Source: an uncultured Candidatus Binatia bacterium (GTDB lineage Bacteria > Desulfobacterota > Binatia > UBA9968 > JAJDTQ01). Taken from it: 64,000 bases of DNA. The notes beneath the pieces were generated by a model that made no database searches, was not told where the DNA came from, and was given only the letters and a program-made list of their open reading frames with translations. Every line of letters starts with the position of its first letter. The first letter of the stretch is position 1. The stretch spans positions 3,522,967 through 3,586,966 of the forward strand of contig OZ244617.1 of the NCBI GenBank assembly GCA_965218305.1, in the 5' to 3' direction. The translations under genes and the position numbers were made by a program. Positions 2,754 to 20,042 of the stretch are shown here, piece after piece.

Positions 2754-5700
2754 CTAACCGTTGGACCTCCTCAACACATCGCGCATGACTTCCTTGGCCG
2801 GCCGGATGCGATTGGTGAGAATGTCCAGCGCGAACCGTGGTGGCCCCGATCTCCGACACTCGTCAGCAAGCAACTCTTTTGCCAAGTCCTGGCTTTGCCC
2901 TGTCGACATCGATGCCATCAGGCGGACAGTCGATGCCCGAACACTTGGCTCATCATTGTCCATGGCGAGCTGCAAAAGAGTCCCTTCAACCTCGGGATCT
3001 CGTTCCAATCGGGCACGGAATGCGTCCAACGCATCCTCGGGGAAATCCCATGGACTCGACGTCTGCCTAGTTACGAACCATGCAAGGGCGCTAGCAACCT
3101 GTTCCCGTGTTCCTTGTGCGCTCAGAAGCCAGAGGTCGGCGCAGACAAGCAATCTGGGCCACTGGTGTCCTCCCAGGAGATTTCGGTACTCGCGCACAAT
3201 TACCTCCTGATCCGGCCAGTGGGATGCCAATCCGACCAGTGCGCCTCCCTGCGCCTGGAGACTGTCGCTGGCTACTATGATCGCTGCCACCGCGGAGGAA
3301 TCTTCGGAGAAGTGCTTAGCCACACATTTCGACGCCACGACCGTGGATCGGGCAGCATCGAGGGGAGTCCATCTCTGTGCGTCGAACTCTGCGGTCAAAA
3401 CCCGTTTACAGCAATCCAGCAGCAGCGAACTGCCGGGTCTGAGCCGTGACAGCGCCACCAGCCCGGCCGCCTCCAGCACCACGGCCTCGTCCTCGCAGTA
3501 TTCGAGGAATCTCGTCCTCAAGAGGGATGAGCGGTTTAGGTAGGGTGCGAACGACCGCCAGAAGCCGGCAGGGTGTTCCCCCCATCGGCTAAGGCGACTA
3601 ACCGGAAATTCCCCCGTCGCCGTTTCCAGTTCCTCCCATCGGTCCGCCGCCAATTCAAGAACTGGTGCGTAGTCCTTGAACTGATCTACGAGGTCTATTC
3701 TAAGGAGTTCGTCGTCGCCCTTATCCTTCGCACCTGCGAAGACATCGACGCGCCCTAGCGCCAGTAAGCCCGCGAAAGCCGCAACGCGCCGCTGGTCGAA
3801 GTCAGGCCCGACAGCGTCAACTTGTGCGCGCAGGGCTTTGATCCTCGCTTGGGTCTCGCCGGGCGCTGCGAGCGCTGCATAGGAACGCCCGATCGTCGCC
3901 TGAACCATTGCATATTCGTCCGTCTCCAGCTCGCACGCGTGTAAGACTCGCCTCAACGCCTCGTCATCGAACCGCTGGCTTGCTCTCCTCGCGATGTAAC
4001 GGCGAAACACCGTCGGAAGCGGAGCCGCACGCTGCAGAATCAACGGTGCGATTTCCGTGTCGCTGCCGTAGACGCTTGCGATTGCCGCCAGAGGAGGTGA
4101 TGGCTCCCGCAGCCGTTCCAATGCGAACTCCCTCACCCGCGGATCAGCGTGAAACCGGGCGACTAGCCCGCCTTCACCCCCGAACACGGCTGGAGACTTC
4201 CTGACATGAGGCAGGATCGCGGACACAGCCTCCCCCTCGTCGATCTCGTTGCCGAGGGCGGCGAACCCTCCTATCACGAAGTCCGTTCGCGAGACCTCCG
4301 GGAGGTCGCAGATCTCTATTAGCAGCCGAAAGCCCTCGTCGACCGAACCGATGATCGCCGGAACGTGATGGGCAATGTGTTGTCTTTCTTCGGGAGGAAT
4401 CCGCGGGAGCGGTTCCAGGGCAGCGCTAACCTCGGGATCGTCGATCCCCCAGCCATGTAGCAAGCTCCAGACCGGCCAGAACCGAAATTGCCCTCTTTTG
4501 GCCAACCGGCTTAGCATCTCCCGCTTGGCCGCATCGCTCCTGAGCATTGCCGCCAGCTCCGCCGCCTCGTACTCAACACCCGAGAATTTCTTCTCCTCGA
4601 ACCAGGTCTCGACGGCCGCACGCACGTTCGCATGTTCGGACAGGATCGGCTCCAGCAGCGCGTCCACGGGTCCCCTGAACGGGAAGTGGTCACGCGTTTC
4701 TATTTCCTCCTGTATCCAGCGGGGCACGCGGGGATCTACCCGATGGAGTCTCATGAGCATCGATCGGGCGTCTTCGTGGCGGATGCGGTATTTCGGCGGA
4801 CCCCGCCTGCCTACGCCGGCCCAACAGGCGTCCTGCAATTCGCCGTCGTCCGCCCAGTCCGTGACCAGCGCGTCCATAATCTCCGCGTGGAGTCTGCCCG
4901 TGAACCTACTCCAACCGGTGCCCAAAGCGCCCAGCAGCGAGTCCCTCCCCTCATCACCTCGCCGACCACGCCGGTACAATGCCAAGGCGGTGACCATTCG
5001 AATCTGAACACTCGGCGAACGCTCACCCTCGTGCAACCAGTCGTCCAAACCATCGACGGACGGCCAGCCCCGGCTCAGTGCATCGAGCGCCGCCGCCGTC
5101 ACCCAAGGGTTCACGGACTCGTGAGTGAGTGCGATTAGCCGGCATCCAACCTCGGGGATTCCTCCAAAGACCCTTGCGAGACTCAATGAGGCGGCCAACT
5201 GGTTGCTGTCCCCCTGGAGTACGAGCTGCAGCGTCTGGGCAAGTTCCTCCGTCGGCTGCCACCGACCGAGCTGTGCGTAAAAGTCTGCTTGCCACTCGGT
5301 GACCCCGGGCCACCACCTCGCAAGCCGTGTGACGATCGCCTCGCCGATGGGGCCGGCGCGCGGACCATCCAACGCCAGGCCCAGCAACTCGAGCCCTTCG
5401 GCGTCATCCGTCCCGGTTTCGATCCGACTCAGACTGTCAAGAGCCGCCTGCCGACCGACCGCCCCCGAGACAGACGCCGTTGCGAACGCGCCGTCCGCGA
5501 GCAGCAACCGCCGATCCGTCGAGTCCGGCTCCCCCTCGTGTTCGTCCCGTATCGCTTCGAGCATCCGCTCCACGTCAGCCCTGCGCTTCAGCGATTGGAG
5601 CAGTGCAAGAATGGTACCGCGCCAGCGTGGTTCGCCCGCATGGCCGGACACGAACTCGACCTGGTCTTCCAGCGTCCAGGTGGCGAGTTCCAGCCCTGCA

Positions 5701-7667
5701 AGGTGTTCACGAAACGCGGCATGGCAGAACGCAAGTTCTTCCGGACCACGCTCCACTAGGAGGCCTGACGTATCCGCTTCCAGGTCAGTCAATTCCCGCG
5801 CCCCGAGTCGGGCCTGCTCCTTCGACCATGCGGGTCCGCCGTCCGAATCAGCCAGGAAATCCTCGATGACTCGCCGGGCATCGCTGCGATCGATCCCGGC
5901 GTCCGCGCCCCGTACCTGAACCTCGAAAGCCAGCTTGGCTAGAGCTTCGCTCCGAACGTCGTCGGTCGAGAACATGCGGGTCCGTGGTTTCACCTCGGCG
6001 GCCGCCGTCGCACGCCGATTGGGATGCACCTCCAGGAGGATTTCGATGAGTTTCTCAAACAACTGAAATCGCGTGTTGGGTAGGAGGATCTGGCGTGCCG
6101 CCACCGAGAGCAACCCGTGGAGCAGCAACGGATTACCTGTCAGAGACTGCAGCCGACCGCTATGCTCCAGTTGCTGGAAGAACTGCTCGACCCGAAGCGC
6201 GACGGGAGTCGCCGCGCTATCGTCCTCGCTCAGGAGCTTGGTCGCGAGGTCGCGTTGTTGGCGCGGGTGCAACTCCACCAGTCGCGCAGTGTTCCAGTGC
6301 CCGCTCATGGGGCCCAGGCGGCGCAACCCGGCCGGGCGCGCGGTCGCTATGGTGAATACGTCGTGCGTGCGAACGAAGGTTTCGATCGTGGCAAGCGTCG
6401 TCCGCGCGGCCTGCTCATCGCCGTACTCGTCCAGACCGTCTATCAGCAGCACCAGTCTTTCGTCGGATAGCGCTTCGATGAAGGAGTCCTCCAGTTCGCT
6501 CTGGGGAACGAACGCCCTGAACGCCTCTCGGGTTACCTCCGCCAACCCCACTTCGCGTTGTTCCTTCGCCGTGAGACGGCTCCAGAGTGCAAAAGGGATA
6601 AGCAATGGTATGCGCGTACCGAGCCGGTCATGGACGGCGGGGAACAGTTCCGGAGTGCGCACCAAGTCGAGCGCCAAGCACCGCAGAGCCGTACTCTTGC
6701 CCAATCCGGGTGCGCCCGAGAGCAGCAACGCGCGGGCGCCCTGCAACAGCCAGTCGTCGAACGCAATAGAAGGCGTCTCGGACGATTCACTCGGCGGACT
6801 ACGAAAACGGGTAGGTTTCCCGGGGTCGCTGTACTCGTCGAACTCCCAGGCATCGTCATCCTGTCCGGGCGCTTCGGTGGGCCAGTCCTCTGGCTCAAGC
6901 GACGACTCGAGGAACGCATTGGCTGGATCGACATGGGGGACGACGAAGCGCTTGCGGATATCGCGCGCATCCCTCCGACCCGGGTCGACGTTCAACCCCG
7001 GGTCGAGCTGCTGGATCCGTGCGTTGTAGATTTCCGCCAGACGCCTCCGCAGCGCAATCACGCGTTGTACTTCCAGCGGCCGTTTTAGGCTCGCCGCAAC
7101 CTCCTCGCCAGCAAAGGCAACGAGCCAGTTCCGACCGAAAAAGTCGTCGACGACCTCTGGATGGGACTTTAGCTTCTCGCTAAGCTGGGTACCGTCGACA
7201 CCTTCGAACACGACGCCTTTTTCAAGAAGCCGTGCGGCCTGTGCCTCGATCGTGTCCTGCAGCGCGGTGTCTGTAAGGCTTGCGCGCACGCAAAAGACGA
7301 AGCGCTCCGCCGACGCAGCCCATTTGCCCTTGAGGAAGTCGTCGACAGCCTTCTCGATGTCGGACTTCCCCACGTCCTTCCGATTCCTGGCCTGCCAACA
7401 GATATGTCCACCGCCAGCCAGACGGGCATAAACGTCGATGCCATCCTGAGCTTGACCGGGTCGCCCATACGGCGCACAGTACACCACGTCAGGATTCCGG
7501 CGCGCCAAGCAGAACACAAGCCGTTCGAAGTCTCGCCACGAGAGCTGGTCGTAAGGCAATTGCGCGATTCGGGTCTCTACCGGGGGATCTTTGACGACCG
7601 ATTCCGGAAGCTCCAGGAGATAGACGGGGACCGTCGGGGTCCCTGAAGGCGCGATCGAATCGTGCAA
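2754..7667 (-). CDS. restriction-endonuclease-like N-terminal domain + NACHT/STAND NTPase + long helical C-terminus (Avs/bacterial NLR-like antiphage candidate)
   Basis: N-terminal LSWRDFERL...YGRPGQAQDGIDVY...WQAR; Walker A GAPGLGKST; Walker B LLIDGLDE; 1637-aa uninterrupted ORF. Confidence 0.85.
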   Translation of the reverse strand: MHDSIAPSGTPTVPVYLLELPESVVKDPPVETRIAQLPYDQLSWRDFERLVFCLARRNPDVVYCAPYGRPGQAQDGIDVYARLAGGGHICWQARNRKDVGKSDIEKAVDDFLKGKWAASAERFVFCVRASLTDTALQDTIEAQAARLLEKGVVFEGVDGTQLSEKLKSHPEVVDDFFGRNWLVAFAGEEVAASLKRPLEVQRVIALRRRLAEIYNARIQQLDPGLNVDPGRRDARDIRKRFVVPHVDPANAFLESSLEPEDWPTEAPGQDDDAWEFDEYSDPGKPTRFRSPPSESSETPSIAFDDWLLQGARALLLSGAPGLGKSTALRCLALDLVRTPELFPAVHDRLGTRIPLLIPFALWSRLTAKEQREVGLAEVTREAFRAFVPQSELEDSFIEALSDERLVLLIDGLDEYGDEQAARTTLATIETFVRTHDVFTIATARPAGLRRLGPMSGHWNTARLVELHPRQQRDLATKLLSEDDSAATPVALRVEQFFQQLEHSGRLQSLTGNPLLLHGLLSVAARQILLPNTRFQLFEKLIEILLEVHPNRRATAAAEVKPRTRMFSTDDVRSEALAKLAFEVQVRGADAGIDRSDARRVIEDFLADSDGGPAWSKEQARLGARELTDLEADTSGLLVERGPEELAFCHAAFREHLAGLELATWTLEDQVEFVSGHAGEPRWRGTILALLQSLKRRADVERMLEAIRDEHEGEPDSTDRRLLLADGAFATASVSGAVGRQAALDSLSRIETGTDDAEGLELLGLALDGPRAGPIGEAIVTRLARWWPGVTEWQADFYAQLGRWQPTEELAQTLQLVLQGDSNQLAASLSLARVFGGIPEVGCRLIALTHESVNPWVTAAALDALSRGWPSVDGLDDWLHEGERSPSVQIRMVTALALYRRGRRGDEGRDSLLGALGTGWSRFTGRLHAEIMDALVTDWADDGELQDACWAGVGRRGPPKYRIRHEDARSMLMRLHRVDPRVPRWIQEEIETRDHFPFRGPVDALLEPILSEHANVRAAVETWFEEKKFSGVEYEAAELAAMLRSDAAKREMLSRLAKRGQFRFWPVWSLLHGWGIDDPEVSAALEPLPRIPPEERQHIAHHVPAIIGSVDEGFRLLIEICDLPEVSRTDFVIGGFAALGNEIDEGEAVSAILPHVRKSPAVFGGEGGLVARFHADPRVREFALERLREPSPPLAAIASVYGSDTEIAPLILQRAAPLPTVFRRYIARRASQRFDDEALRRVLHACELETDEYAMVQATIGRSYAALAAPGETQARIKALRAQVDAVGPDFDQRRVAAFAGLLALGRVDVFAGAKDKGDDELLRIDLVDQFKDYAPVLELAADRWEELETATGEFPVSRLSRWGEHPAGFWRSFAPYLNRSSLLRTRFLEYCEDEAVVLEAAGLVALSRLRPGSSLLLDCCKRVLTAEFDAQRWTPLDAARSTVVASKCVAKHFSEDSSAVAAIIVASDSLQAQGGALVGLASHWPDQEVIVREYRNLLGGHQWPRLLVCADLWLLSAQGTREQVASALAWFVTRQTSSPWDFPEDALDAFRARLERDPEVEGTLLQLAMDNDEPSVRASTVRLMASMSTGQSQDLAKELLADECRRSGPPRFALDILTNRIRPAKEVMRDVLRRSNG

Positions 7668-7859: not shown

Positions 7860-8043
7860 AACTAGTTGATATATTTGTGGTTTATAGGGATCATGAACTA
7901 TGAATCGCTAAGCGGCTCGATCCTTTGCGTAAGCATACTGTAAGCGGATTCACTCCAGTTTGCGCGCATCCTAGCGCGCCTCTGTCCGACAAATCCTCCA
8001 CTACTGATGACCTGCAACACATTGTGCCCACCTCGGTCAGTCG

Positions 8044-9201
8044 TCATCCCTCTATTATCTGGCCGATGTTCTCCCCTTCAAACCAAAGGATTTCATTCTT
8101 GTCCGCTCTCGCGTGCGACAACCGATACAGGATCTCTGGTGGTTTTATATCGCCGGCGTATGGATTGACGTAGAGACGGGTAGTTGCCTCGCGAAGGTTC
8201 CAGGGAACGCAGTCACGGAACATCAAGACAGCGGAAAGCCTAGTATAGCGCGGTTGGTATCCGCCTCGAATCCAAACTCCGTCAGGCTCGCGACCAAGTT
8301 TCGCATATAGATCAGGACGATCATCATAATAGACGATGTGCTCTTTGCCGAACAACGCCTCCATCTCATCCTCCCTACCAAAAAACGGGTCACTCACATT
8401 TGTCGCCACCACAAGCGGCGAGTCGAGTTGACCATACCTTTTGGCCTTCTCCCTTATCGCGTTCCGAACAGAAGTAGAGATGTCGAGTGCTTCCACACGA
8501 GCGGGGCCTATGACAAGAGGTCCGGACCTCCCGCCGTCTCGTTTTTCAGAAGCTATCGGTTTAAGCCATCCTTGCAAGCGCCATGATCCACACCCAATAG
8601 TTCGACAGGGCGCCGCAAATGGGCCTGCCACGTCGATCATTCGTTGGACCTCATCCGGGTCGTGAGCAGCCAGTAGCTCACGGAAGGATTGGACCACCTG
8701 CTCCCGGCTCAGAGCCCGTAATAGCTTCCCCTCTACTTGGGCAAATATGTTGAAATTCCCAGAATTCAGGCTGTTGATTTTCGCCATAACGTCCTCTTCC
8801 AAAGGATGGCGAGCAAATGGGCTCCCACTGGGCTCAATGTACGTCGTTTCGACATAGAAGGAACAATCCCCATGAAGAGCAAGAAAGTCCGGCCGCGATC
8901 CCTTGCCGGGAACACTGGGATGCACCTCTACCGTGCAGCCTAGGTGGGTGAGCAGCTCATGAATGAACAATTCAAAAACTGCTCCTTTATGCGCCCGATC
9001 ATCGTCTTTGCGAAACCTAGCCCGAACATCGTTGCGGGCATCGACTGGGAATCGCCCAAACCACATCTCGAGCCGAGCGCGAATCGCGGTCGCCTCGCGG
9101 TCCGCGGATCGGTTCAGGTATGAAAAAAGGAACTCATTTTGTTGTCTTCCACTTGCATCTGTTCGTTTCTTTTCGTCGAAAAGAGCTGCCCGAATTGTCA
9201 T
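8044..9201 (-). CDS. hypothetical protein with PD-(D/E)XK-like nuclease signature
   Basis: AVFELFIHELL...SRPDFLA...FYVETT has the E...PD...ExK-like spacing with the Lys position degenerate. Confidence 0.6.
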   Translation of the reverse strand: MTIRAALFDEKKRTDASGRQQNEFLFSYLNRSADREATAIRARLEMWFGRFPVDARNDVRARFRKDDDRAHKGAVFELFIHELLTHLGCTVEVHPSVPGKGSRPDFLALHGDCSFYVETTYIEPSGSPFARHPLEEDVMAKINSLNSGNFNIFAQVEGKLLRALSREQVVQSFRELLAAHDPDEVQRMIDVAGPFAAPCRTIGCGSWRLQGWLKPIASEKRDGGRSGPLVIGPARVEALDISTSVRNAIREKAKRYGQLDSPLVVATNVSDPFFGREDEMEALFGKEHIVYYDDRPDLYAKLGREPDGVWIRGGYQPRYTRLSAVLMFRDCVPWNLREATTRLYVNPYAGDIKPPEILYRLSHARADKNEILWFEGENIGQIIEG

Positions 9202-9227
9202 GTTTCGTGGTGTCTCCCGATCAACTG

Positions 9228-9267
9228 TGAGGTGGCCTCACTTTCTTGGACAGTTTGGCGGTCCGAG
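9228..9267. mobile_element. orphan IS3-family terminal inverted repeat
   Basis: TGAGGTGGCCTCACTTTCTTGGACAGTTTGGCGGTCCGAG closely matches the IS3 ends at 41850-41879 (reverse complement) and 47864. Confidence 0.6.
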
Positions 9268-9279
9268 TTGCGGCCTGTG

Positions 9280-9574
9280 CCACCGTTTCAACCCCAACTA
9301 TGCCACAACTGGCCGGCGCGCTGAACAAACTGCAGGACCGCGCAAGGGCCGCCAACTCCAGCCGCGGCTGATCGAACGCATCGTGCTCACGCCCGCCGCG
9401 AACCGGGAGAGATGGACGTCGCGCTACACGGCGACCCCTGGGGACCATACTTGAATAGACTGGAAAAAGGACGGAGTCAGGAAGGCCGACCCGCCCTCAT
9501 CGGGGATGTCAATCTCGGTGGTTGCGGGGGTGCGCAACCACCGAAACCGACATTCGCTCGTAGTCTCGATCTAA
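9280..9574 (+). pseudogene. C-terminal remnant of a large serine recombinase
   Basis: Broken frames read LAGALNK...LIERIVLTPA...DVALHGD...SVVAGVRNHRNRHSLVVSI*, the tail pattern I recognise from recombinase-family proteins. Confidence 0.55.
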
Positions 9575-9846
9575 GCCGATGTAGCCCTCCCACGAGACAG
9601 AAGGGATTGTACCACGGCGCGTTGTTCCCCCCGAGGCCCTCAAACGTTACGCTCCGGCCGACCGAAGCGAAACCCCTCCGGCAGACGGGCGACATCGAAG
9701 TTACCTCGGCATCGCGCCGTCTTCGTCGGCTGCCCATCCTAACGCTTCCACCGCCTGGATCGTCCCCGGGTTGAACGAGCCCGCCTATATGGACAGAGTT
9801 GAAATCCCCCTGTCTACAGGACGGCACTCGATACGCAGGCATGTGT

Positions 9847-10548
9847 TCACATCGCCAGGAGTGGGATCTCCGAGTTCGTCCAGTTTCGGAGAGACTCTGC
9901 AAACCGCTTGCCTATCCTGCCCCGGGTTTCCACGACGCGCGCGAAGGTCTCGAAATCGACGCAGTCCTTGCCATCAATGGCCTTTGGCAGGACATGGATC
10001 ACACTTAGCGAGGGCGCGGGGGAAGCAATGACCGTGCGGTCGATGCATTCGTAGACCACGCGGCGTGGGGATTCGCGGGCTTTGTCTTCGAGGTCTTGAG
10101 GCAGCGTCATGAGGCCGAGGCCACCCATAGCTCGCAGCAGTTGGAAGTATTTCTTCCTGGAACGCGGGTTCGAAGCCTTCGCCATCCCTCGAACGTCGCA
10201 CAGGATCTTGGGCATGCCGCGCTTCACCGCTCTTTCCAGATAGTCTTCTTGGAGTTGCCGGAGAGAGCCCATGTCGGTCTTCAACTCGATGAGGAAGGCG
10301 TGTTTGCGGTCCGTGGAGAGCGCGAAGAAGTCGGCCTTGTCCGACCGCTTGGTGCCGTTCTGGCCGAGCGGAAACTCGGGCATTAGCCGCGGATCGATCC
10401 TGACGCCGCGTGGCGCCAGATGACGGTCGAGGGCTTGCGGCAGGAACAGACCGAAAAAGACGTCGGTGCGCGGCTCGAGCCGATAGGACGGCAGATGCCG
10501 CCAGTTGGCGAGATGATCGAACAATGAATCAATGTCCGGGGCAATCAC
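9847..10548 (-). CDS. PD-(D/E)XK-superfamily nuclease (hypothetical)
   Basis: LMPEFPL...KADFFAL...FLIELKTD motif. Confidence 0.7.
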   Translation of the reverse strand: MIAPDIDSLFDHLANWRHLPSYRLEPRTDVFFGLFLPQALDRHLAPRGVRIDPRLMPEFPLGQNGTKRSDKADFFALSTDRKHAFLIELKTDMGSLRQLQEDYLERAVKRGMPKILCDVRGMAKASNPRSRKKYFQLLRAMGGLGLMTLPQDLEDKARESPRRVVYECIDRTVIASPAPSLSVIHVLPKAIDGKDCVDFETFARVVETRGRIGKRFAESLRNWTNSEIPLLAM

Positions 10549-10597
10549 AAAGAAACCTCCACTTGGCGAACTGCGAGAAAGACCTCTAGTGTTGCTA

Positions 10598-12106
10598 TCA
10601 CCAACGCAGAACCCTCGAACGCTTGGCGTCGTAGGACTTGATGTAATCGCCGAGCGGATGCCCTTCGTCCCTCATCGACCGGGCTGGATCCCATCCAGAA
10701 AGCAGAAGCTCCGAAGCGCCGTAAATGAACTCCAGGGTTTCCGTAAGGAAGAGGACGACCTCGGCCGTATAGTCGATGTCGCGATCGCCAGGCCCGTGCG
10801 TGTAATAGTTGCGGCATTTCACGGCCAGCGCGATGACCTCCTCCAGTTGCTTCAAGCTGTCTCGGCCGAAATAATTCAGTACGATTTCTGCTCGGTATTC
10901 CACAATGTCGCGAAGCCGCTTGTTGCCTCGAATGCGCCCCAGCGCGTTCAGGACATCCTGCCTTTGTGTCCCGGGGGACATGCTGCACTTGGCCTTCCTG
11001 CTCGCATCCGTGAGAATATTCATGACATCTTCCGGCAGCGGCTGCGCCTCGGGCTTGTCTTTGTTCGGCAACAGATCGAAAGTGTTGGCGGCCGATACGA
11101 TGCCGTCTTCAATGGCGCGGCTCGATGTTCCCGGGAAGCAGCTGAAGAACCGCGCGTTGGCGCTCTTCCTTTTCGCATCGCTGTTCCGCTCCAGCCATTT
11201 CTCCATCACCTCCATGAAGTGGGCGGGACACTGTGACGCATCGATCAGGGTTCCGCTTCGCCTCGCGCCTTCGGGCGCCTCGTTCCACTCATTCGGCCCG
11301 AACACTTCGAGATCACCATCTGGGTCCGCGCGGTATCCGTCTTCGTCCGGTGGCGAGACGAATACCAGCACATCCTTCCACCTTGGCGCGTATCCCATCA
11401 TCCACCCGAAGAACTGGCGGATCTCCCGCATTTTCTCCCACGCGCCTTCCAGCGTGGTCGGATCGTCGTCGAAGTCGACCGTAATGCGCGGCGTGTCCGC
11501 AATGCTGCGCCCAGAGAAATCAATCCGCATCGACCGCCCGACATGCACGGTCCCCAGGACTGTCCGGAATCGCGGCAGGAAATACCAATCCCCCGTGAAG
11601 TAGGACACCATCGCCTTCCCCTTCACGAATTTGCCTTTCAAGTGATCGGGCCTCGTCCTTTCGATGGCGTTCAGGATCGATTCATCTGGATCAAGCAATC
11701 GTCCGAATCTCTCAAACCTGTCGTTCATGAATACGCTCGACTCCACTCCCTCCAGCGTGAACTGGATGCCCCGCATGCACTTCTCATCAATGGCAACATG
11801 CCGCTTCCCAAAGAGCGCGTACCGGAAGGCCACGTCGCCGTGATGTATCGTGAAATCACCCAAGCCGGTCGAGCCCAACATCCCGCCCCCGACGCAGTCG
11901 AGTACCGAGACCCTTCCGGCCTCCGAGATGCCGTGCAGGGAACCGCCGTCGGCGACATGGACGAACTTGTCGTCGGCGATGCTGACGACATTGCTGTCGA
12001 ACAGGCTGCCCCTCCTCAGTTTGAGCTGACCGGCGATCCGGTGTCCTGCTTCGGGATCAAACAGCACCCCAATTGGACGCTCGTACTTGTCGTCTCCGCG
12101 CAACAT
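10598..12106 (-). CDS. ApeA-like protein (N-terminal domain + C-terminal HEPN RNase)
   Basis: C-terminal RNYYTH (Rx4H HEPN motif) after a helical region; length and layout match ApeA-type HEPN proteins. Confidence 0.75.
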   Translation of the reverse strand: MLRGDDKYERPIGVLFDPEAGHRIAGQLKLRRGSLFDSNVVSIADDKFVHVADGGSLHGISEAGRVSVLDCVGGGMLGSTGLGDFTIHHGDVAFRYALFGKRHVAIDEKCMRGIQFTLEGVESSVFMNDRFERFGRLLDPDESILNAIERTRPDHLKGKFVKGKAMVSYFTGDWYFLPRFRTVLGTVHVGRSMRIDFSGRSIADTPRITVDFDDDPTTLEGAWEKMREIRQFFGWMMGYAPRWKDVLVFVSPPDEDGYRADPDGDLEVFGPNEWNEAPEGARRSGTLIDASQCPAHFMEVMEKWLERNSDAKRKSANARFFSCFPGTSSRAIEDGIVSAANTFDLLPNKDKPEAQPLPEDVMNILTDASRKAKCSMSPGTQRQDVLNALGRIRGNKRLRDIVEYRAEIVLNYFGRDSLKQLEEVIALAVKCRNYYTHGPGDRDIDYTAEVVLFLTETLEFIYGASELLLSGWDPARSMRDEGHPLGDYIKSYDAKRSRVLRW

Positions 12107-12542
12107 CAGTTCCCTCCCTACTGCCGGCGGGTGTCTACCTCACCGAATGCATGTTCGCCTTTCTCGTACACCCGAGAACCGAAGCGGCTCCCCGAGGAAT
12201 CCGGACGGAGTGTCATCGGGATGGAAAGGAGCCGTCCCCTTACTACCAAACCACACCATCGCCGCGAGTCATCCACGCCCGCGGGATGGATAACTCCGCT
12301 ACCGTCCAGAACCGGTGCTGCCCTCCAGGGAAAGCCGTCTTCCTGGCAGAGCAGGTTCCGAGAAAACTGGGTTGGCGGCGGCATCGCCTTCTCCACCAGT
12401 ACTAGAAACCCTTGGCCGTATAGCGGAGTGCGACGTCGGTTTTCCATCGCGGTGGGCCGACGGAGCTTCCTACTATTGCCACGGTTCGCCACCTCCGCCC
12501 ATCTGAACCACCGCGGCTTCTGGGTCCCCTTGTACACACCGG

Positions 12543-13264
12543 CTACGGCTCTGCGTATCGCGTGGAGCCGAGACTCCACACCATCCTTTCGGTCATCGCC
12601 GTCTCGGGGCGCTGGGCGTTGGCGCGCTCATGTTCGCGCTCGCGACGCAGCAGACTCCAGAACTTCTTCGGACCGAAGACCTTGACCGGCTCTCCGTTCC
12701 AGTCGTGCTCCAGTTCCAGCGAGTCCTTGGAGTGGTCCGCGATAACAAGCGCACCGCGAACGGGGAGAGACGTGCCGAGATGGTGGCGAACCCGGCACAC
12801 ATTCTCGCCCACTTGGCGTAACGCCGCAGGAAACCTCCGCTTGCTCAGCCAGCACGCCTTGGTTTCCACCACCCAGATCCCGGCTGGTGTCATCACCACA
12901 TGATCGACGTTGCCCGCCCGCCCAGCAGTGCTCCCTTGACGTCATGCGCGAATGCGCAGCCGCGCTGTGCTACGGTGTTCGACGAGATCGCCGACCTGAC
13001 GCTCCGCAGCCAGTCCGCGACCCCATGTGGCGACGAGGTGACGGCATATTGAGTACACCGCACCCAGCCCTACAACCATCACACCCAGCGTGACCCACGC
13101 CGTGAGAATTTCAGGTCACCTGTCGAACACGGCAAAGCCTCGGACCATAAATCCCAATCCGAAACCCGCTAAAGCCATGTAAACATGCCGATCGAAGCTG
13201 CACGGGAGAAGAGTTCTCCCCGCAGCCAATCACCGGCCGCATTCTTTCGCCCCGTCTTCTCCAT
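12543..13264 (-). pseudogene. membrane-anchored NERD-domain nuclease, disrupted
   Basis: Pieced across frames: MEKTGRK...two hydrophobic segments...WGRGLAAERQVGDL...AFAHDV...GNVDHVVMTPAGIWVVETK; one in-frame TGA and at least three frameshifts. Confidence 0.7.
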
Positions 13265-13343: not shown

Positions 13344-14366
13344 TCAGGCGTCTGCCTCAAGATATTGGCGGAGTTCACGGGCGAGGCGTTCAGCTTCCTC
13401 CGCTGTGAGATATGGCACCTTGATGGTTCTCGCCCAAAAGAAGGTCCTGCCGGTGACCTCGGAAACCATGCTGGGTGGCATAGCCCTCAAATCGCCGCCC
13501 CGAGCGGGGACAGGGGTCAGGAACTTGACGCGCCGATAGCGCGTTTCAGGATCGCGAGCTTGCACCGGCGCGTTCTCGACCTTGGCTGCCGCGACTACTC
13601 CTGCGCCGACATGGGAGAAGAAAACGGTGTCTCCGGGGTGGAGGTAGTCGATGAACCGCTGGGCATCGCCGTATGCTGCAACGTATTCATTCTCCATCAT
13701 TTCCCAAAGCGCTTCTTCGTTGTAGCTGCGGTTGGTGTCGAACAGCACGCCCTTCGCTTGTCCGGGGTTGCGGTGCTTGTCGTACGGTAGAGCGAAGAAT
13801 TCGAAGTATTGCTCGTCTGCCAACTCGTAGACACGGTAGGGAAGAAACTGGATAGAGATCCCCTGCCGTCGCCAGTAGTCGACCGCATTTATCAGGCTCT
13901 CGTCAGCGGCGTTGCCGATGATCACAAGGTGCTGCCGCGTGTTGATCTCCTTGGCATCCAGGGGCCTGTCGAGAGAGAACGCCTCCTGATGCGCGCAGAG
14001 GAGATCGCTCTTGTCATCGGTATACCGACGATACTTGCCTTCGAGCTGGGCAAAGTTCCATTGGCCGGCATCTTGGGCGTACCGAAGTACCTGGATGAGT
14101 GCATCGTCTCCGGCTGAACCGCGTTTCAGTTCGAAAATGAAGAGATCTCCTCTCTCGTCCAACGCGTAGATGTCTGCCTCCGCTTGGAAGGTACGTTCCC
14201 GGAAGACGGGCATGAGGCGCGCGTCTTCAAACAGCAAGTCGAGGATGTTTGCCGCGATGAGGCTCTCGAGATCCCTTTCCCGCTGGCCGAAGTTCGAGAA
14301 GTCCGTGAAGGGAACAGGCTCGAGGCCGTCGAAGGTCCCTGACGTTACGGTGAGCTTATAGAGCAT
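13344..14366 (-). CDS. NucS/EndoMS-like PD-(D/E)XK endonuclease fused to a C-terminal EVE/PUA-like domain
   Basis: ERDLESLI...ADIYALDERGDLFIFELKRG; C-terminus ...LHPGDTVFFSHVGAGVVAAAKV...RRVKF. Start placed at MLYKL (AGGA RBS). Confidence 0.7.
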   Translation of the reverse strand: MLYKLTVTSGTFDGLEPVPFTDFSNFGQRERDLESLIAANILDLLFEDARLMPVFRERTFQAEADIYALDERGDLFIFELKRGSAGDDALIQVLRYAQDAGQWNFAQLEGKYRRYTDDKSDLLCAHQEAFSLDRPLDAKEINTRQHLVIIGNAADESLINAVDYWRRQGISIQFLPYRVYELADEQYFEFFALPYDKHRNPGQAKGVLFDTNRSYNEEALWEMMENEYVAAYGDAQRFIDYLHPGDTVFFSHVGAGVVAAAKVENAPVQARDPETRYRRVKFLTPVPARGGDLRAMPPSMVSEVTGRTFFWARTIKVPYLTAEEAERLARELRQYLEADA

Positions 14367-14458
14367 TCCGGTTCCTACCTGTACGAATTTGAGCCGTTGG
14401 AAAAAGCTCCACGGCGTGGCCTCCCAATAGTGTGCACAAAAAAGGACCTGATTTCGGG

Positions 14459-14935
14459 TCACTCTGTTCGTGCCGGGCACTTCGGGATCAGGTGGGCATG
14501 CAGGATGGCGTGCACCTCGTTCTTGAGCCGGGTCCTGTGCCGTACCACCTGGTAGCGTCGGGCCACCAGCCGGCGCAGCCGCTCAGTGGCCGCGTCCGGC
14601 GTCCACACCTCGGGCAGATAGCCCGCCGCATAGAGGCTCGCGAGCGTGCCCGCGTCCACCTTGTCGGTCTTGATACGGGCATGGGCGATCGCCTTCACCT
14701 GCAAGGGATTCGCGAACACCACCCGCTTCACCAAGGGTGTCAGCACGCGTGACACCGCCATGCAGTTCCCTGTCGCCTCGATCACGACTTCGTCCGTCGC
14801 CCGAAGGCTCCGGCCGAAACCCTCCAGCCCCGTGCGGGGCATGTCCACCCGGCCCGCCCGATGCAGGGCTCCCTTGTCCCAGATCACCACCTCGCCGAAG
14901 GTCCGATGGATGTCGATGCCGATGACTCGTCTCAT
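14459..14935 (-). pseudogene. IS110-family recombinase, N-terminal RuvC/DEDD half only
   Basis: MRRVIGIDIH...VVIEATG...ANPLQVKAI...KTDKVDA; truncated after IPKCP with no C-terminal serine domain; GGAGGAGG RBS. Confidence 0.9.
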
Positions 14936-15180
14936 GTTCGCCTCCTCCTGTCCAAAGATGACGGGAGCGGCGGGCAACACGACAACTACGGATTCGCGCT
15001 CTCGGCGCAACCGGGCGAGTCGCAAAGGCGGCCAGCTACTAAACACGAGCTCGCAGCTCATCGTATACATCGGCCTGCCCGCACCTTCGTGCTCCCGGTG
15101 CCTCAGTCCCGGATGGTCGCACCATACGCCACGATCACGAAGACCGCAGCTGAACATCGGCACCAGAATCTTCATACCGG
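14936..15180 (-). ncRNA. IS110 left non-coding end, candidate bridge RNA
   Basis: About 245 nt upstream of the recombinase with nested stems: 14962-14968 pairs with 15091-15097, and 14970-14976 pairs with 15076-15082. Confidence 0.5.
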
Positions 15181-15610
15181 TTACTAACTCATGGGTGAGA
15201 CAAAACGGGGAGCAGGTCAGTGTTTATGGACAACCAACCTTTCAGGAGAACACCATGACCACCAAAGACAAGGCCACCCGGCGGAAGCTGAGCTTGCTGG
15301 AGCTGGCCCAAGAGTTGAGTAACGTGTCAAGGGCGTGCCGCATAATGGGCTACTCACGCCAGCAGTCTACGAGATCCGACGCAACTACCAGACCTACGGG
15401 GCGGAAGATCTCATCGACCGGCTGCCGGGTGCCCGGGGGCCGCATCCCAACCGGGTCTCCGAGGAGGTGGAGGCCGCGATCCTCGCCCACGCCCTGGATC
15501 ACCCCACCCACGGCGCCCTGCGGGTCGCCCAGGAGCTCTCGCTTCAGGGCGTGCAGGTTTCGTCCGGAGGGGTCCGCTGCGTCTGTTCCCGTCACAAGCT
15601 CTTGACCAAA
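15180..15610 (+). pseudogene. IS481-family transposase, 5' remnant
   Basis: ATG 15255 MTTKDKATRRKLSLLELAQELSNVSRACRIMGYSRQQ, frameshift near 15366, then YEIRRNYQTYG...PHPNRV...GVR; truncated before the DDE core. Confidence 0.85.
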
Positions 15611-15624
15611 CTGCCCAAATGCGG

Positions 15625-16703
15625 TCGAAGCTAGCACGACTGTCCAGTCCCTTGCTGGCGACGACTGGCCGGACCGATTCTTCCAAGTGACCGTCGACCG
15701 GGTGACCCGACACGCCGCTTCAACCATTCTCAACCAGGATGCCGTTAGGAGCTACATCGGCGAAGTCTGCCCAGTCCCCCTAACCTACTCCTTCCCGCTT
15801 GCATGCGAAATCCGCGACTTCCTCGCCGCCCACACGGACTACTTTGTGCTCGACGTTCGCCTCAACGGAGACCACGCGCCGATCGTTCGGCCTTTCGGAC
15901 AGGCCATCCCCCTAACGGATGACTATTCGGCCGTGTTCGAGCGGTTGGAAACACGCGTCGTTCCTCAGGTCGACCAAGACCACCCTGCCGCTGTTCTGTG
16001 GATAGCCCATACACCGTATATCGGCTCCATACCCGACGATTTGGCATTCGCGGCCTTCGCGCACGTGCCGGGAACATCCAGATAGGCTGGGACAACATAT
16101 TCGAACACCTCTTTCACGAAACACGGTTCAACGGTTGGTGCATCGGTGAAGTCCATATAGTCGACAGTCGCATAGTTCCGAACGGTCGCCGCGACTACTT
16201 CGAGCCGGGCCCCCATCTCCGCAATCTTGAGAACCACATCGGCGCGATCGCCCACGAAATAAACTCCCAGTGTCGTCGCGCGTCATCGCAGCGAAACAAG
16301 CTCCGTGCCGTTAGAACGGCAATTAGTCAGGTAAAACGTGCGCGCGACCTCGCCGCTTCCGGGTACCTCTGCGCAGAGGACGCCGCCGAACTGCTTCTAC
16401 GCCAGCGCGAGCGCCTTCCCCAAATCAGGGAGACCCTCCAACAGTTTCAAGGCGCGACCTCACACCTTGAGTTAGTTAGACGAACTCGACTTCTGCAAGA
16501 GTCAGCTAGACGCGGTCGAGCTCGATGCGAAGCTGTCGCTCAAGGGCGTGCCGCGTCAGGCCGTGGGCACACTTCGATGGGCCTTCGGTGCGCTTGCGAA
16601 ATCCATGCCACCGGATACTGCCCTGGATACGATCGAAACCATCTTAAATAGGCTGACCAACAACCCGTCGACCGCCCTTACTGTCAATAGACCCAAGAAC
16701 TGA
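15625..16703 (+). pseudogene. C-terminal part of an HSP90/MutL(GHKL)-like defence-associated ATPase
   Basis: Joined frames read ...WIAHTPYIGSIP/RRFGIRGLRARAGNIQIG...IGEVHIVDSRIVPNGRRDYFE...; frameshifts near 16033 and 16470; the ATP-binding N-terminus is missing at the IS481 junction. Confidence 0.5.
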
Positions 16704-16973
16704 CGGCCAGTGGCGTGCGCCCGGAAAATGGACAAAATCTGACCATGGCTTGAAGCCGGAATACCACCAAACCGGCTGTTGAATGAGTTCGGAAAGCATC
16801 CTGACCGCTACGTGAACGAGCCGGACGAGGCCACTACCAATGGTCACGCAACACAGCGATTCAGGTAGCCAGCGTTGTGGCGGCTCACCGTTTGATTTAC
16901 AGCGAATCGATTGCGCAAGTGGGGGAGGGACGGACCAGCAGCGGCACTTGTCAGACCTCGCGGCTCTTGATGG

Positions 16974-18491
16974 CTACACTTCGCGTGCTCTTTCTCCCAG
17001 CAAGTAGTCCAATTCTTGGGGTCCTACTTCGTTCATGTTTGAAAGATGCCGTGTCAGCGCGACACGGCTTACCTGAATTCGGTCTGCCAGCCGGCCAATA
17101 CCGTGCTTCAAGTCAGCCAAGCCCGTAGCCGCTGGAGGACGGCTAGCCCGGCTTGGCGGCATCAACAACATTGCCGCGAAAGCATTCGCTCGTTGTTCAA
17201 CCGATGGCGAAGCCCATGGTGTACTGCTATGCGCCAACGAACGTGCACGACTCCGATCGAACAATATATGGCACAGTTCATGAGCCAACGTAAAACGTCT
17301 ACCGCGGTACTTGTTCTTCGAGTCGTCTTCGTTCACAAGAATGGTAGGTTGTAAGTCTCTGCCTGCAAATGCCACCCCACGAGGGCCTTGTTCCCCAAGA
17401 CCTACATTCTTCACCGTCACACCCAGGGCGTCAAGTATAGCGTCTATGTTTGTCGTCGCTGACTTGGGGTTTGGATCGAGGTCGTCCAACACATCTAGTG
17501 CGCACGAGTACCCATTGTGCCACGGAGAGGATGTCGACCAAGCGGGCTCATCGGAGAATCTCTCCGCCAGCGATGCGGACATGCCCCCATTAGTCTTCGC
17601 GTTGAAGTACTCCGCCAACAAGTTCGCCGCCGCTTCCTTTGAGATATCTGGCGCGAGGTCACCGAACATCGCGACTTCTGGGGCGAGGTTGCCCAACCAA
17701 CATCGACCGGACAACTCCGGCAGCTCAGCGTGGGCTCGGATCGCTTTTTTGAACGTCTTAGTAAGCGACCCGGGCTTTGGACTGGAATCAAGGAACCATG
17801 ACAGCGCCGTTTCTGCTGGCAGGGCACGCGTCTCTCTCCATTGTCTTCTCAATTCCGTTTCCCACTCAGATCCGCACACTTGCTCTTGTGCGCAAAACCA
17901 CTCCACTGCATCGTAAAAAGTTCGCGCAACGACGTCTACCGGTGCGCGAGCGATTCCATCCTCCACGATAAACCTTGCGGGGTCCGCGCCCGGTTGAACC
18001 CTGTCGCCCCAAGAGAACTCAATTTCGTCTTCCATTCGCTGAAAAAAGACGTCCGGAAGAATGCCGCCCTCGGAAGCGGCACGAAGGGCGTGGCGTTCGG
18101 CCCATTCTTGCCAACAAAGAAAACGGTCAAGATCGTCCCCCGCGCTCTCCAACATCGCCAAATACGCGGCGCGAGCCGAACGTGGTCGACTATCCCCGAC
18201 ACGTCCCCCAGGCGGAAGCCGTTTTTCATGAAGAAGTGGCATCCAGTTCGCTACAATCCATCGGAACAATGGCGCCAGGAACCATCGAACCCCGTGGACC
18301 TCAGCCAAACCGTCTTTTGTGTCCAATTGAAGCGCACACAAATTGACCTTAGCGACCCAAAGACGCCATTCACCCCAAGAATTGACGCTCCGTTCGGGCG
18401 CAATCCCGCGCACTTCCTCGGACTCCAACCGAACCTGAAGAGCGAAAGAAGAGTGGTCGCCAAAAGTGATAAACTTTTTATCGGCCTCCAA
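16974..18491 (-). CDS. ImmA/IrrE-family Zn metallopeptidase with a large unknown N-terminal domain
   Basis: RRFTLAHELCHILFD (HExxH) and EQRANAFAAMLLMP; TTG start at 18491 with GGAGG 8 nt upstream. Confidence 0.85.
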   Translation of the reverse strand: MEADKKFITFGDHSSFALQVRLESEEVRGIAPERSVNSWGEWRLWVAKVNLCALQLDTKDGLAEVHGVRWFLAPLFRWIVANWMPLLHEKRLPPGGRVGDSRPRSARAAYLAMLESAGDDLDRFLCWQEWAERHALRAASEGGILPDVFFQRMEDEIEFSWGDRVQPGADPARFIVEDGIARAPVDVVARTFYDAVEWFCAQEQVCGSEWETELRRQWRETRALPAETALSWFLDSSPKPGSLTKTFKKAIRAHAELPELSGRCWLGNLAPEVAMFGDLAPDISKEAAANLLAEYFNAKTNGGMSASLAERFSDEPAWSTSSPWHNGYSCALDVLDDLDPNPKSATTNIDAILDALGVTVKNVGLGEQGPRGVAFAGRDLQPTILVNEDDSKNKYRGRRFTLAHELCHILFDRSRARSLAHSSTPWASPSVEQRANAFAAMLLMPPSRASRPPAATGLADLKHGIGRLADRIQVSRVALTRHLSNMNEVGPQELDYLLGERAREV

Positions 18492-18842
18492 CGACCTGTC
18501 CTCCGAAGGAATCTCGGACCTGCCGCCGAGTCCTGTATGTCCGCAAATCCTTGCGAGACACAAGGCCAGCATCAAGCCACCGCTTCTTTAGTTGCGGATC
18601 CATTTTGTCCCATGCCTCAGGGTAGCCGTGCCAAACCTCTTCGTTGTTCGAGTCTTTTGTGCTACGAACCCGATACCGTTTCGCGTGGCCTGCAGTGTTT
18701 TCCCTACAGGCTCCGCCGTTTTGAGAAGCTCCTGTGCGATAGACGCGCTCCACTTGGGACACTTGACTCCGGGATTCTCCGCAGTGATCGGTTCGCAGTG
18801 CCGTGGACTTGCTTCGTATATTCGCGCTAGAGGTTTACCCAT
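18478..18842 (-). pseudogene. small toxin-like protein with WHGYP motif, split by a 1-nt frameshift
   Basis: Frame 1 MGKPLARIYEASPRH...KCP...FVAQK joins frame 2 DSNNEEVWHGYPEAW...GGR* at the A4 run (plus-strand TTTT 18655-18658); the 3' end overlaps the peptidase start. Confidence 0.6.
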
Positions 18843-19256
18843 AGTGCGGAACCATTTGGTTGGCGTGGCCGTCAGTGGTTATCTCTGTCGTCTCTTGTGT
18901 AATCGCGGTCTTCGGGTGACTGTAGGCATCTAGGCTCTTTTCGGTAGTAGGACGCCTACCTGACAACCGTCAGCCTTGGAGAATCGGCTGCCAATCAGCC
19001 TATATCCCACAGAATCGCGTTGACTACCACACATTACGACGTAATTAAATCGCTGATTCAGTCCTACTCGTGATAGACAGCGGTTGCAGTCGCCGTAAAA
19101 TTTCCTTGTGGCCCTTCCGCGGGGTTTCGCCGCGTTTCCTCTTTCCTTCCCGGCGCCAATCCGTGCATTTTTCGCAGCCCTGCCAGGGCCTACCGTGCCG
19201 AGTCGCAGATACGTCCGAGCGAGACCGCCGTTCAAGTTTGAAACCCGCCGGTGTCC

Positions 19257-20042
19257 TCAGTGCATCAACCGCCCCCCGGAGACATTCAAGGCCTCGCCGG
19301 TTGTATGGGAAGAGTCGCTGGAGGCGAGGAACAGTGCGGCGCTGGCCACTTCCTGGTGCTGAGCGTGCTTCCGCAGCGGGGTCTGTGCCAGGACGCTCTT
19401 CTCCAGGTCCTCGAAGGAGACGCCGAGGCCCTTGGCGCGGTCCCGGTACATGTCCCGCAGGTCGGCTTCGTCCATGCCGCCGGGGCAGATGACGTTGGCG
19501 CGCACGCCCGAGGGGCCGGCCTCCTTGGCGATGGTCTGGGTCAGTCCCAGAAGGCCCCATTTGGCGGCGCACAGGGAGCCGCGCAGCGCCATGCCCTCGC
19601 GACCGGCGGTGCCGGAGATGCTGACGATGCTGCCGCCTTTCTGCTCCGTCATGACCGGCAGCGCGGCCTTGCAGCAGAGGAAGATCGCCTTCAGGTTGAC
19701 GTTGAGGACCGCGTCCCATTCTTCCTCGGTGATTTCGTGCACCTGCACCATGGGGCCGCGGAAGCCGACGCTGTTGACCAGGATGTCCAGCCGGCCCCAC
19801 TTGTTCACCACGTCGGCTACCATTTTGTCGACCTGCGCCGAGTCGGTGGCGTCGGCGGTCAGCGCCGCGGCCTCGCCGCTCTTTTGCTGGATGGCCTGGA
19901 CCACGCCGTCGAGCTCGGGTTTCATCTTCTCGAGGTCCACCAGGACGATCTTTGCGCCTTCACCCGCGAAGGTGTGGGCGATGGCCTCGCCGATGCCCCG
20001 GGCGCCGCCGACGATGACTGCGACTTTGTCTGCGAGCTTCAT
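19257..20042 (-). CDS. SDR-family oxidoreductase
   Basis: VIVGGARGIG, DILVNSVG, catalytic position reads LCAAKWG, RANVICPG; AGGAGG RBS. Confidence 0.95.
   Translation of the reverse strand: MKLADKVAVIVGGARGIGEAIAHTFAGEGAKIVLVDLEKMKPELDGVVQAIQQKSGEAAALTADATDSAQVDKMVADVVNKWGRLDILVNSVGFRGPMVQVHEITEEEWDAVLNVNLKAIFLCCKAALPVMTEQKGGSIVSISGTAGREGMALRGSLCAAKWGLLGLTQTIAKEAGPSGVRANVICPGGMDEADLRDMYRDRAKGLGVSFEDLEKSVLAQTPLRKHAQHQEVASAALFLASSDSSHTTGEALNVSGGRLMH

Follow-up and report, generated by a model that had tools for sequence, protein, structure and literature searches.

The window analysed here is a 64,000-nt stretch from an uncultured Candidatus Binatia bacterium (GenBank assembly GCA_965218305.1, contig OZ244617.1, positions 3,522,967 to 3,586,966 of the forward strand), and its subject is a pair of overlapping genes between 16974 and 18842. 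An earlier reading of the DNA, hereafter the original prediction, had proposed that this pair was a candidate new toxin-antitoxin or defence system, in which a small toxin-like gene precedes a gene fusing an immunity-like domain to an IrrE-type protease. All elements of this two-gene module were found on the minus strand, where the original prediction had placed them, and comprise a small gene interrupted by a frameshift and an intact large gene downstream of it. The features are as follows, with positions within the large protein given in amino acids (aa) and with L112 denoting the locus of the nearest relative.

16974..18491, minus strand: large gene, intact, 505 aa, with an immunity-like domain, a helical linker and an M78 peptidase; TTG start at 18491
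16977..17141, minus strand: C-terminal helix-turn-helix (HTH)-like segment, aa 451-505, at its putative position and without a GAF domain after it
17142..17426, minus strand: M78 (ImmA/IrrE) zinc peptidase core, aa 356-450, within a Pfam match that spans aa 356-483
17268..17282, minus strand: HELCH motif (H404-H408), intact; the third ligand, E432, is invariant
17427..17891, minus strand: all-helical linker region, aa 201-355, without a family match (AlphaFold2 model; Pfam)
17892..18491, minus strand: acidic double beta4-alpha (sPC4L/Whirly-like) domain, aa 1-200 (AlphaFold2 model; Foldseek match to 5FFP)
18478..18639, minus strand: small gene, 3' part (frame B), encoding EVWHGYPEAWDKMDPQLKKRWLDAGLVSRKDLRTYRTRRQVRDSFGGQVVGGR, then the stop codon TAA at 18480-18478
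18499..18504, minus strand: GGAGGA ribosome-binding site for the large gene, inside the FGG codons of the small gene and 7 nt upstream of TTG 18491
18639..18640, minus strand: inactivating 7-nt deletion between ACGAA and GAGGTT; L112 reads CGATGGA at the same place
18640..18842, minus strand: small toxin-like gene, 5' part (frame A), encoding MGKPLARIYEASPRHCEPITAENPGVKCPKWS...GFVAQKTRTT (alignment with homologues)

The small gene occupies two frames in the window, 18842-18588 and 18762-18478. Frame A runs from an ATG at 18842 to a stop at 18588 (84 aa), contains the motifs YEASPRH and KCP, and is in register with intact homologues as far as ...GFVAQKTRTT, after which it is out of register. 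Frame B, the product of which begins and ends EVWHGYPEAWDKMD...FGGQVVGGR, contains WHGYPEAWD. Intact homologues are single open reading frames (ORFs) of 121-123 aa, and the repaired ORF of ~121 aa with YEASPRH, KCP and WHGYP that the original prediction had drawn from the two frames was confirmed, all three motifs consisting of invariant family residues. The lesion was defined by DNA alignment with L112, the large protein of which is 82% identical, and lies outside any homopolymer. Over 16900-18950 the window agreed with Logan contigs of four separate sequencing runs (depth 26-54), with 0 differences and 0 gaps, and because the same sequence was obtained in four independent runs the frameshift is real and not an assembly error. 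The small gene is a true pseudogene in the window organism. In L112 the 5' half of the small gene has been lost through another lesion; the two lineages inactivated the small gene independently, and both retained the large gene. The ratio of nonsynonymous to synonymous substitution rates between the window and L112 was 0.13 for the retained 3' portion of the small gene and 0.19 for the large gene, low values which indicate that most of the divergence arose under constraint and that the small-gene inactivations are recent. In the window copy the toxin-like gene is dead and the protease fusion is intact and has evolved under purifying selection; at most, this copy is an orphan antitoxin or immunity gene, non-functional as a system.

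The start of the large gene overlaps the end of the small gene by 14 nt, and the original description of this overlap with a 505-aa protein ending in a HExxH IrrE/ImmA peptidase held in each respect (TTG 18491, HELCH, Pfam M78). Gene callers and the mechanical ORF list gave a longer form of 533 aa, beginning at 18575; the start at 18491 is preferred because both the N-termini of homologues and the ribosome-binding site agree with it. At most of the genome loci described below, the codons for FGG R carry GGAGG and precede the start codon of the large gene, TTG or ATG; the two genes overlap there by 4-14 nt. This arrangement couples translation of the large gene to that of the small gene.

Searches with the large protein detected 525 relatives, nearly all of 500-530 aa and with Peptidase_M78 as the sole annotated domain, and searches with the repaired small protein detected 90, mostly intact ORFs of 121-123 aa without an annotated domain; such numbers far exceed what chance would give. 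A scan of genomes, limited to one genome per species, identified 23 loci in Alpha- and Gammaproteobacteria, Armatimonadota (Capsulimonadaceae, Chthonomonas) and Binataceae; one cultured carrier is Sphingomonas jinjuensis YC6723 (L008). A scan of metagenomes for the broader clade identified 204 loci, of which 80 were kept. The fusion gene was found downstream of the small gene at 23 of 23 genome loci, and at the metagenome loci the small gene was followed by a gene for the N-terminal domain and M78 wherever the contig was long enough, so that the co-occurrence in other genomes expected from the original prediction was found at every locus where it could be seen. The two genes are directly adjacent save for insertions in L010, where ~3.4 kb separates them, and in L007. 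Clustering of flanking ORFs at the 23 genome loci and in the window revealed no other conserved neighbour. The pair is a conserved, self-contained and widespread two-gene module, undescribed so far. A 625-aa fusion of the small and large proteins in L006 (~8323; a long-read Pseudomonadales metagenome-assembled genome, MAG) was set aside as probably a sequencing artefact, one T having been lost in TTTT relative to L001 and L002.

The large protein matched Pfam Peptidase_M78 (PF06114) over aa 356-483 (E 3.5e-12, 46.6 bits, cutoff 22), and the same model matched 82 of its 83 relatives. H404, E405, C407, H408 and E432 were invariant among 69 non-redundant relatives of 23-70% identity, and HExxH was without deviation in 64 of 64 non-redundant relatives; with its catalytic motif intact, the protease domain is predicted to be active. 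The best PADLOC matches of the large protein were to capP (1.5e-17) and to several RmrA models (best 1.6e-10), which cover only aa ~347-487, the peptidase part, or about positions 160-266 of 380. Matches in the PDB were to CapP (7t5t, 6.5e-7) and IrrE (3dte, 3.7e-3). Pfam also gave weak matches to HTH_11 in 29 and to HTH_5 in 10 of the 83 relatives, at positions within the protein that were not located, and we ascribe these, with some reserve, to the C-terminal HTH-like segment typical of IrrE/CapP-type peptidases.

Close precedents for this domain are the pairs ImmA/ImmR, IrrE(PprI)/DdrO and CapP/CapH, with which the module shares the M78 signature HExxH...E, an HTH-like segment after the core and a partner encoded by the neighbouring gene. 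In these pairs the partner is an HTH repressor, whereas the partner in the module has no HTH. Compared with pairs of the IrrE/CapP type, the module has a long extension at the N-terminus of the peptidase protein and lacks a regulated cargo operon; the large protein ends ~55 aa past the peptidase core, with no GAF domain, and a comparison of the window sequence with CapP as described (PMC13228613) revealed no cysteine-switch loop between H408 and E432. The domain layout of CapP, including its C-terminal GAF domain, is taken from the same source. Since repressors are the classical substrates of M78 peptidases (PMC13228613, PMC10440598), the pair might be regulatory and unconnected with conflict, the small protein being a nucleic-acid-binding regulator of genes elsewhere and the protease its anti-repressor, in the manner of ImmR/ImmA, DdrO/IrrE and CapH/CapP. 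The basic character of the small protein (family median pI 9.6, net charge +6) and its K/R-rich helical C-terminus would suit such a role. We nevertheless consider it very improbable, as scans of family libraries found neither an HTH nor any other known DNA-binding domain in the small protein, which is homologous to a toxin domain (see below), and the pair is adjoined by no conserved cargo. The patchy distribution, the atypically low GC content of the window copy (0.555 for the module, 0.64-0.68 in the flank) and the lack of a GAF domain in the peptidase also speak against it.

The original prediction had described the N-terminal region of the large protein as ~300 aa without an HTH, resembling the immunity domains of polymorphic toxins and perhaps Imm42-like. 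Pfam searches of aa 1-355 in the window protein, 83 relatives and 10 divergent N-terminal domains found no HTH, and the conserved positions G11, F16, W39, G40, W45, W78, H88 and E89 correspond to the motifs FGD, SSFAL, SWGEW.LW and NW..L.HE to which attention had been drawn. The N-terminal 355 aa were unmatched by models of Pfam, PADLOC, NCBIfam and PHROGs, divergent relatives included. Kinship with Imm42 was not upheld, since the N-terminal domain had no Pfam match of any kind, and DUF5984 was rejected with it (0 Pfam matches among 83 relatives at E<=1 and among 10 divergent N-terminal domains at E<=5). An AlphaFold2 model of the region (pLDDT 82.8, pTM 0.80, the predicted local distance difference test and template modelling, TM, scores) contained a pair of beta4-alpha units within aa 1-200 and, beyond these, only helices. 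The top and only meaningful match of the N-terminal domain in a Foldseek search of the PDB was CdiI 5FFP of Burkholderia dolosa (5ffp_A; E 4.2e-3, prob 1.00, target-normalised TM 0.58), an immunity protein which, with 4NTQ_B, belongs to the sPC4L superfamily (PMC9424270). The immunity-like character that had been proposed is thus supported at the level of fold. CdiI 5FFP and aa 1-200 share the double beta4-alpha topology and no detectable sequence similarity; the domain of the module differs in being fused to a linker and protease and in carrying H88, E89, H134, R152, E158 and S160.

The sPC4L scaffold serves toxin binding as well as binding of single-stranded DNA (ssDNA) or RNA (PMC9424270), and weaker Foldseek matches of the N-terminal domain were to MRP1/2 and PurA, which belong to the same clan (TM 0.33-0.42). 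The domain might therefore sense nucleic acid or another ligand, with the small protein as a dedicated substrate of the protease, either a latent effector that cleavage would activate or an inhibitor that it would remove, and not a toxin held by stoichiometric binding. This alternative, the main rival of a toxin-antitoxin system, is modelled on the ssDNA-binding groove between peptidase and GAF domain of IrrE and CapP, since IrrE/PprI and CapP are M78 peptidases which, when stimulated by ssDNA, cleave a protein encoded by a partner gene (PMC10904395, PMC13228613). The presence of nucleic-acid binders among the structural matches is in its favour, and the many invariant aromatic and polar residues of the domain suggest a ligand site. 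Residues 14-24 of the small protein, the most conserved and least confidently modelled part, form a loop with the properties expected of a docking or cleavage segment. However, aa 1-200 are strongly acidic (pI 5.09 and net charge -8 in the window; family median pI 5.08 and net -10), which is unfavourable to nucleic-acid binding, and the best structural match is by far the immunity protein. As the large protein also lacks a GAF domain and a cysteine-switch loop, we regard a sensor of this kind as rather unlikely; the pattern of gene decay, considered below, bears on it as well.

Models of Pfam, NCBIfam, PADLOC and PHROGs did not match the small protein or its divergent relatives, and a literature search gave no mention of the WHGYP motif. 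Invariant residues were Y8, H14, C27-P28 and W72-H73-G74-Y75-P76 in the narrow family, and Y8, K13, H14, G24, C27, P28, W72, H73, G74 and P76 in the broad family; the consensus of the broader clade is YExNPKHKxPWQxGRxGxLCP...WHGYPVxWxEVP. A profile search of the PDB by hmmsearch with the narrow alignment (A2) found nothing, and 5T87 chain E surfaced only with the broader profile (A4), as its best match (E 0.01), with WHGYPvaW placed opposite YHGHVRAW. This chain is the CdiA-CT toxin domain of Cupriavidus taiwanensis, crystallised with its CdiI. Comparison of the two families by hhalign gave a match at 95.6% (E 1.2e-8, 89 columns), or 91.3% with a narrower alignment of the small family; the control, against the alignment of the large protein, gave 0.07%. 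Motifs common to the small family and the 5T87_E family are [YF]ExxPKH, a helix with Q.aL..S and [WYF]HG, after which a W follows in both, and the beta-sheet is shared. Homologues of 5T87_E are stand-alone proteins of ~100 aa that likewise carry an N-terminal [YF]ExxPKH. By these profile matches the small protein is a distant member of a superfamily holding a genuine contact-dependent-inhibition (CDI) toxin domain, which lends support to the toxin-like character assigned to it in the original prediction. The 5T87 toxin and immunity pair is listed as CDD cd20695/cd20694, with cd20695 as the toxin domain (PMC9111745). As in the module, the gene for the neutraliser directly follows that for the toxin. 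The differences are that the 5T87 toxin is the C-terminus of CdiA, whereas the small protein is stand-alone, is ~18% identical, has WHGYP in place of YHGHVR and lacks SPRRV.

The AlphaFold2 model of the small protein (pLDDT 80.5, with low confidence in the N-terminal third) consists of a short strand, a loop, which in residues 14-24 is highly conserved yet of low confidence, a helix, a four-stranded antiparallel sheet with WHGYP and three short basic helices. An RNase-type toxin of the BECR fold had been suggested, and this was not confirmed, as Foldseek found nothing significant for the model in the PDB or BFVD; HigB (5jaa_D) was ranked 7th (TM 0.30, E 0.68), and the helix with a four-stranded antiparallel sheet is compatible with BECR. 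The invariant Y8, K13, H14, C27 and W72-H73-G74 look like an active site, and the basic charge of the small protein suggests a nucleic-acid target.

Homology to a CdiA-CT domain, together with the CdiI-like fold of the partner, also accords with an orphan polymorphic-toxin cassette, in which the small protein would be exported by a type VI secretion system, an extracellular contractile injection system (eCIS) or a CDI-like system encoded elsewhere, and the large protein would provide self-immunity, its protease degrading incoming or mislocalised toxin. The closer, 5T87E-like toxins do occur in such surroundings, in arrays with CdiA_C and IS110 (L116) and near eCIS genes (L114). The small family itself does not: in an exhaustive hidden Markov model (HMM) search of 1.84 billion representatives its 139 relatives were without exception small stand-alone proteins, none fused to CdiA, Rhs or other delivery modules, and among the neighbours of the 103 loci from genomes and metagenomes there were no conserved secretion genes. 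The small and large proteins are, moreover, well conserved and not hypervariable (mean column identity 54-57%), and the 5T87E-like stand-alone toxins are accompanied by unrelated partners of ~112 aa instead of an sPC4L-protease fusion, which means that the same toxin superfamily has been paired with a different neutraliser. An exported toxin is therefore improbable as an account of the module.

Some individual sequences from these searches deserve mention. Long HMM matches (P0231, P0303, P0331) were rejected as repeat-inflated false positives. In P0336 (244 aa) the N-terminal half of the small protein is joined to the C-terminal end of the M78 domain, probably by internal deletion in a decayed locus. 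At L116 (378-4004) the stand-alone 5T87E-like toxins form part of an orphan array that also contains IS110 and a CdiA_C (PF18451) fragment, and at L114 (1-5312) they lie downstream of eCIS_core and AAA genes. The next gene downstream of them in L113 and L116 encodes a helical protein of ~112 aa, likely the cognate immunity family, for which a relationship to the N-terminal domain of the fusion was rejected (hhalign 0.1%).

Decay of the module was analysed at 84 fully covered loci, of which 72 had both genes intact, 5 only the small gene broken, 4 only the large gene broken and 3 both broken; L112 is a sixth locus with only the small gene broken. ORF-disrupting lesions numbered 9 in the small gene of 366 nt and 7 in the large gene of 1518 nt (binomial p = 0.0012), a bias that is conservative because most loci were located via small-protein motifs, with the caveat that some lesions are possibly sequencing errors in long-read MAGs and that independence among the loci is incomplete. 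A costly toxin would lead one to expect just such a preferential loss of its gene. If the small protein were instead the substrate of a sensor protease, loss of either gene would be equally harmless and the excess of small-gene lesions (p = 0.001) would be left unexplained. Invariant residues were also hit in small ORFs that are otherwise intact, by H73P in L003 (WPGYPESRD; small gene ~8001-8366) and by H14Q in L108; both could be silent inactivations, which a count at the level of ORFs would miss. Suspicious substitutions were seen in the small genes of L016 and L064 as well (P28S and an L-to-P change in the helix). The charges of the two proteins complement each other, and the combination of a basic small protein with acidic aa 1-200 is suggestive of the pattern of a basic toxin with an acidic immunity partner. 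An intermolecular cysteine site was considered and rejected, since C15 of the small protein (22%) does not covary with C52 of the large protein (89%).

On this evidence we consider the module to be a toxin-antitoxin or defence system of a new architecture, similar to RosmerTA, with a probability of about one in two, and we put the same odds on the window locus being a decayed copy of a horizontally mobile two-gene module of the toxin-antitoxin or abortive-infection type. The basic small protein of ~122 aa would be the toxic effector, a stand-alone distant relative of the 5T87 CdiA-CT domain. Its downstream partner would neutralise it through the acidic N-terminal CdiI-like (sPC4L-fold) domain, and translational coupling would tie the supply of the partner to synthesis of the toxin. 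By analogy with RosmerTA antitoxins, ImmA, IrrE and CapP, the fused M78 protease may set the state of the complex, either by cleaving the toxin and so keeping it harmless, or by responding to a cue from infection or damage, whereupon the toxin would be freed. A more far-reaching version, which we offer tentatively and think doubtful as it stands, is that a CDI-type toxin-immunity pair was domesticated, through fusion of the immunity domain to a protease, as a suicide or defence switch that works inside the cell and is gated by a signal; a cue would cause the protease to cut the immunity-toxin complex, or stop it from destroying the toxin, and release a toxin of a biochemically uncharacterised family. 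If true, this would be a new family of defence systems, in which immunity proteins are regulated in a way not previously known.

Several copies of the module lie among defence genes. One of them belongs to an island at L111 (Magnetospirillum MAG, 75-20958) in which GmrSD and an SNF2 helicase plus an Eco57I/MmeI-type methyltransferase are found with the module, a NACHT protein, a helicase with MZB/DUF1998, and an HTH_3-Peptidase_M78 gene (369 aa) that forms a Rosmer-like pair with a 172-aa partner. The module in L110 adjoins an MmeI-type enzyme. The candidate toxin-antitoxin or defence pair of the original prediction has computational support as a family; its window copy is not live, the toxin-like gene being a pseudogene.

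A number of observations weigh against a toxin-antitoxin system. The strongest single one comes from L007 (Paracoccaceae MAG, 8793-11983), in which an IS30-like transposase, present twice (342 and 321 aa), splits the large gene and the small gene has kept its wild-type sequence throughout; L082 presents a similar picture. Were the toxin constitutively lethal, its gene should not persist there, and an intact small gene that outlives the large gene at these two loci fits the latent effector of the sensor-protease alternative. The pairing of the two genes is strictly one-to-one, in contrast to the partner-swapping typical of toxin-antitoxin networks, and searches of 72,556 plasmids and 50,697 phage records did not find the module. 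Three copies (L106, L108, L112) stand among housekeeping genes. For a mere immunity domain, the set of invariant polar residues in the N-terminal domain (N50, H88, E89, H134, R152, E158 and S160) and of several invariant tryptophans is unusual. The link to 5T87 is borderline in hmmsearch, and neither 5T87 nor any toxin was among the top Foldseek matches of the small-protein model (5T87 was not in the top 50 from the PDB; best E 0.24), which gave no significant structural match at all.

Among described systems, the toxin-antitoxin interpretation finds its nearest counterpart in RosmerTA, in which a zinc-peptidase antitoxin is paired with unrelated toxins of unknown function (bioRxiv 10.1101/2022.05.11.491447; PMC10440598); our literature search found no mechanistic paper on RmrA. 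Both RosmerTA and the module consist of two genes, a larger M78 protein of the ImmA type being encoded beside a small toxin that belongs to no known family. In both a toxin-first order is common, and both occur in defence islands; at L111 the module is directly beside the HTH-M78 gene. RmrA is ~370-400 aa long and often has an N-terminal HTH (Xre-type), where the fusion in the module has instead a CdiI-like sPC4L domain and a helical linker. Only the peptidase core of the module fits the RmrA models, with no full-length match and with a better score for capP, and the toxins of RosmerTA are diverse and swap partners, unlike the one-to-one pairing of the module. Because of the missing N-terminal HTH, the match confined to the peptidase core and the monogamous pairing, we classify the module as a new variant and not as a member of RosmerTA.

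If confirmed, the module would represent a new architecture among protease-antitoxin (Rosmer-type) defence systems. It would also connect, in evolutionary terms, the secreted toxin/immunity pairs of the polymorphic kind with toxin-antitoxin or abortive-infection modules that act inside the cell. It would give a first functional handle on the WHGYP protein and on the 355-aa N-terminal region, both of which span several phyla. The family is also a tractable case for establishing what the peptidase domain of such antitoxins cuts, and the cultured carrier makes experiments feasible.

A scan for promoters and terminators over 16500-19400 of the window found nothing above the expectation from shuffled sequence. 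The module lies at the edge of a stretch with a NACHT NTPase, HEPN_Apea, PDC-S11, insertion sequence (IS) fragments and a broken gene. The first of these (2754-7667, minus strand) is an ORF of 1637 aa with NACHT/AAA_16 signatures at E ~1e-5, just under the Pfam gathering scores, and without a PADLOC match; it could be a STAND-type (Avs/bNACHT-like) defence protein. An ORF of 502 aa (10598-12106, minus strand) ends in an Apea-like HEPN domain (PF18739; 25.5 bits, cutoff 24.4), and the ORFs beside it at 8044-9201, 9847-10548 and 12118-12579 had no family match. The PADLOC candidate PDC-S11 (13344-14480, minus strand; 378 aa, E 1e-22) combines a nuclease region resembling NucS_C with a weakly EVE-like C-terminus. 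A decayed, IS-rich stretch follows at 14459-16651, with an IS110-like transposase fragment (14459-15175, minus strand), a frameshifted transposase-like HTH ORF (~15200-15700, plus strand) and one gene, without a family match, in two overlapping frames (15687-16085 and 15998-16651, plus strand). Transposon-rich surroundings were also observed for the copies of the module in L105 and L109.

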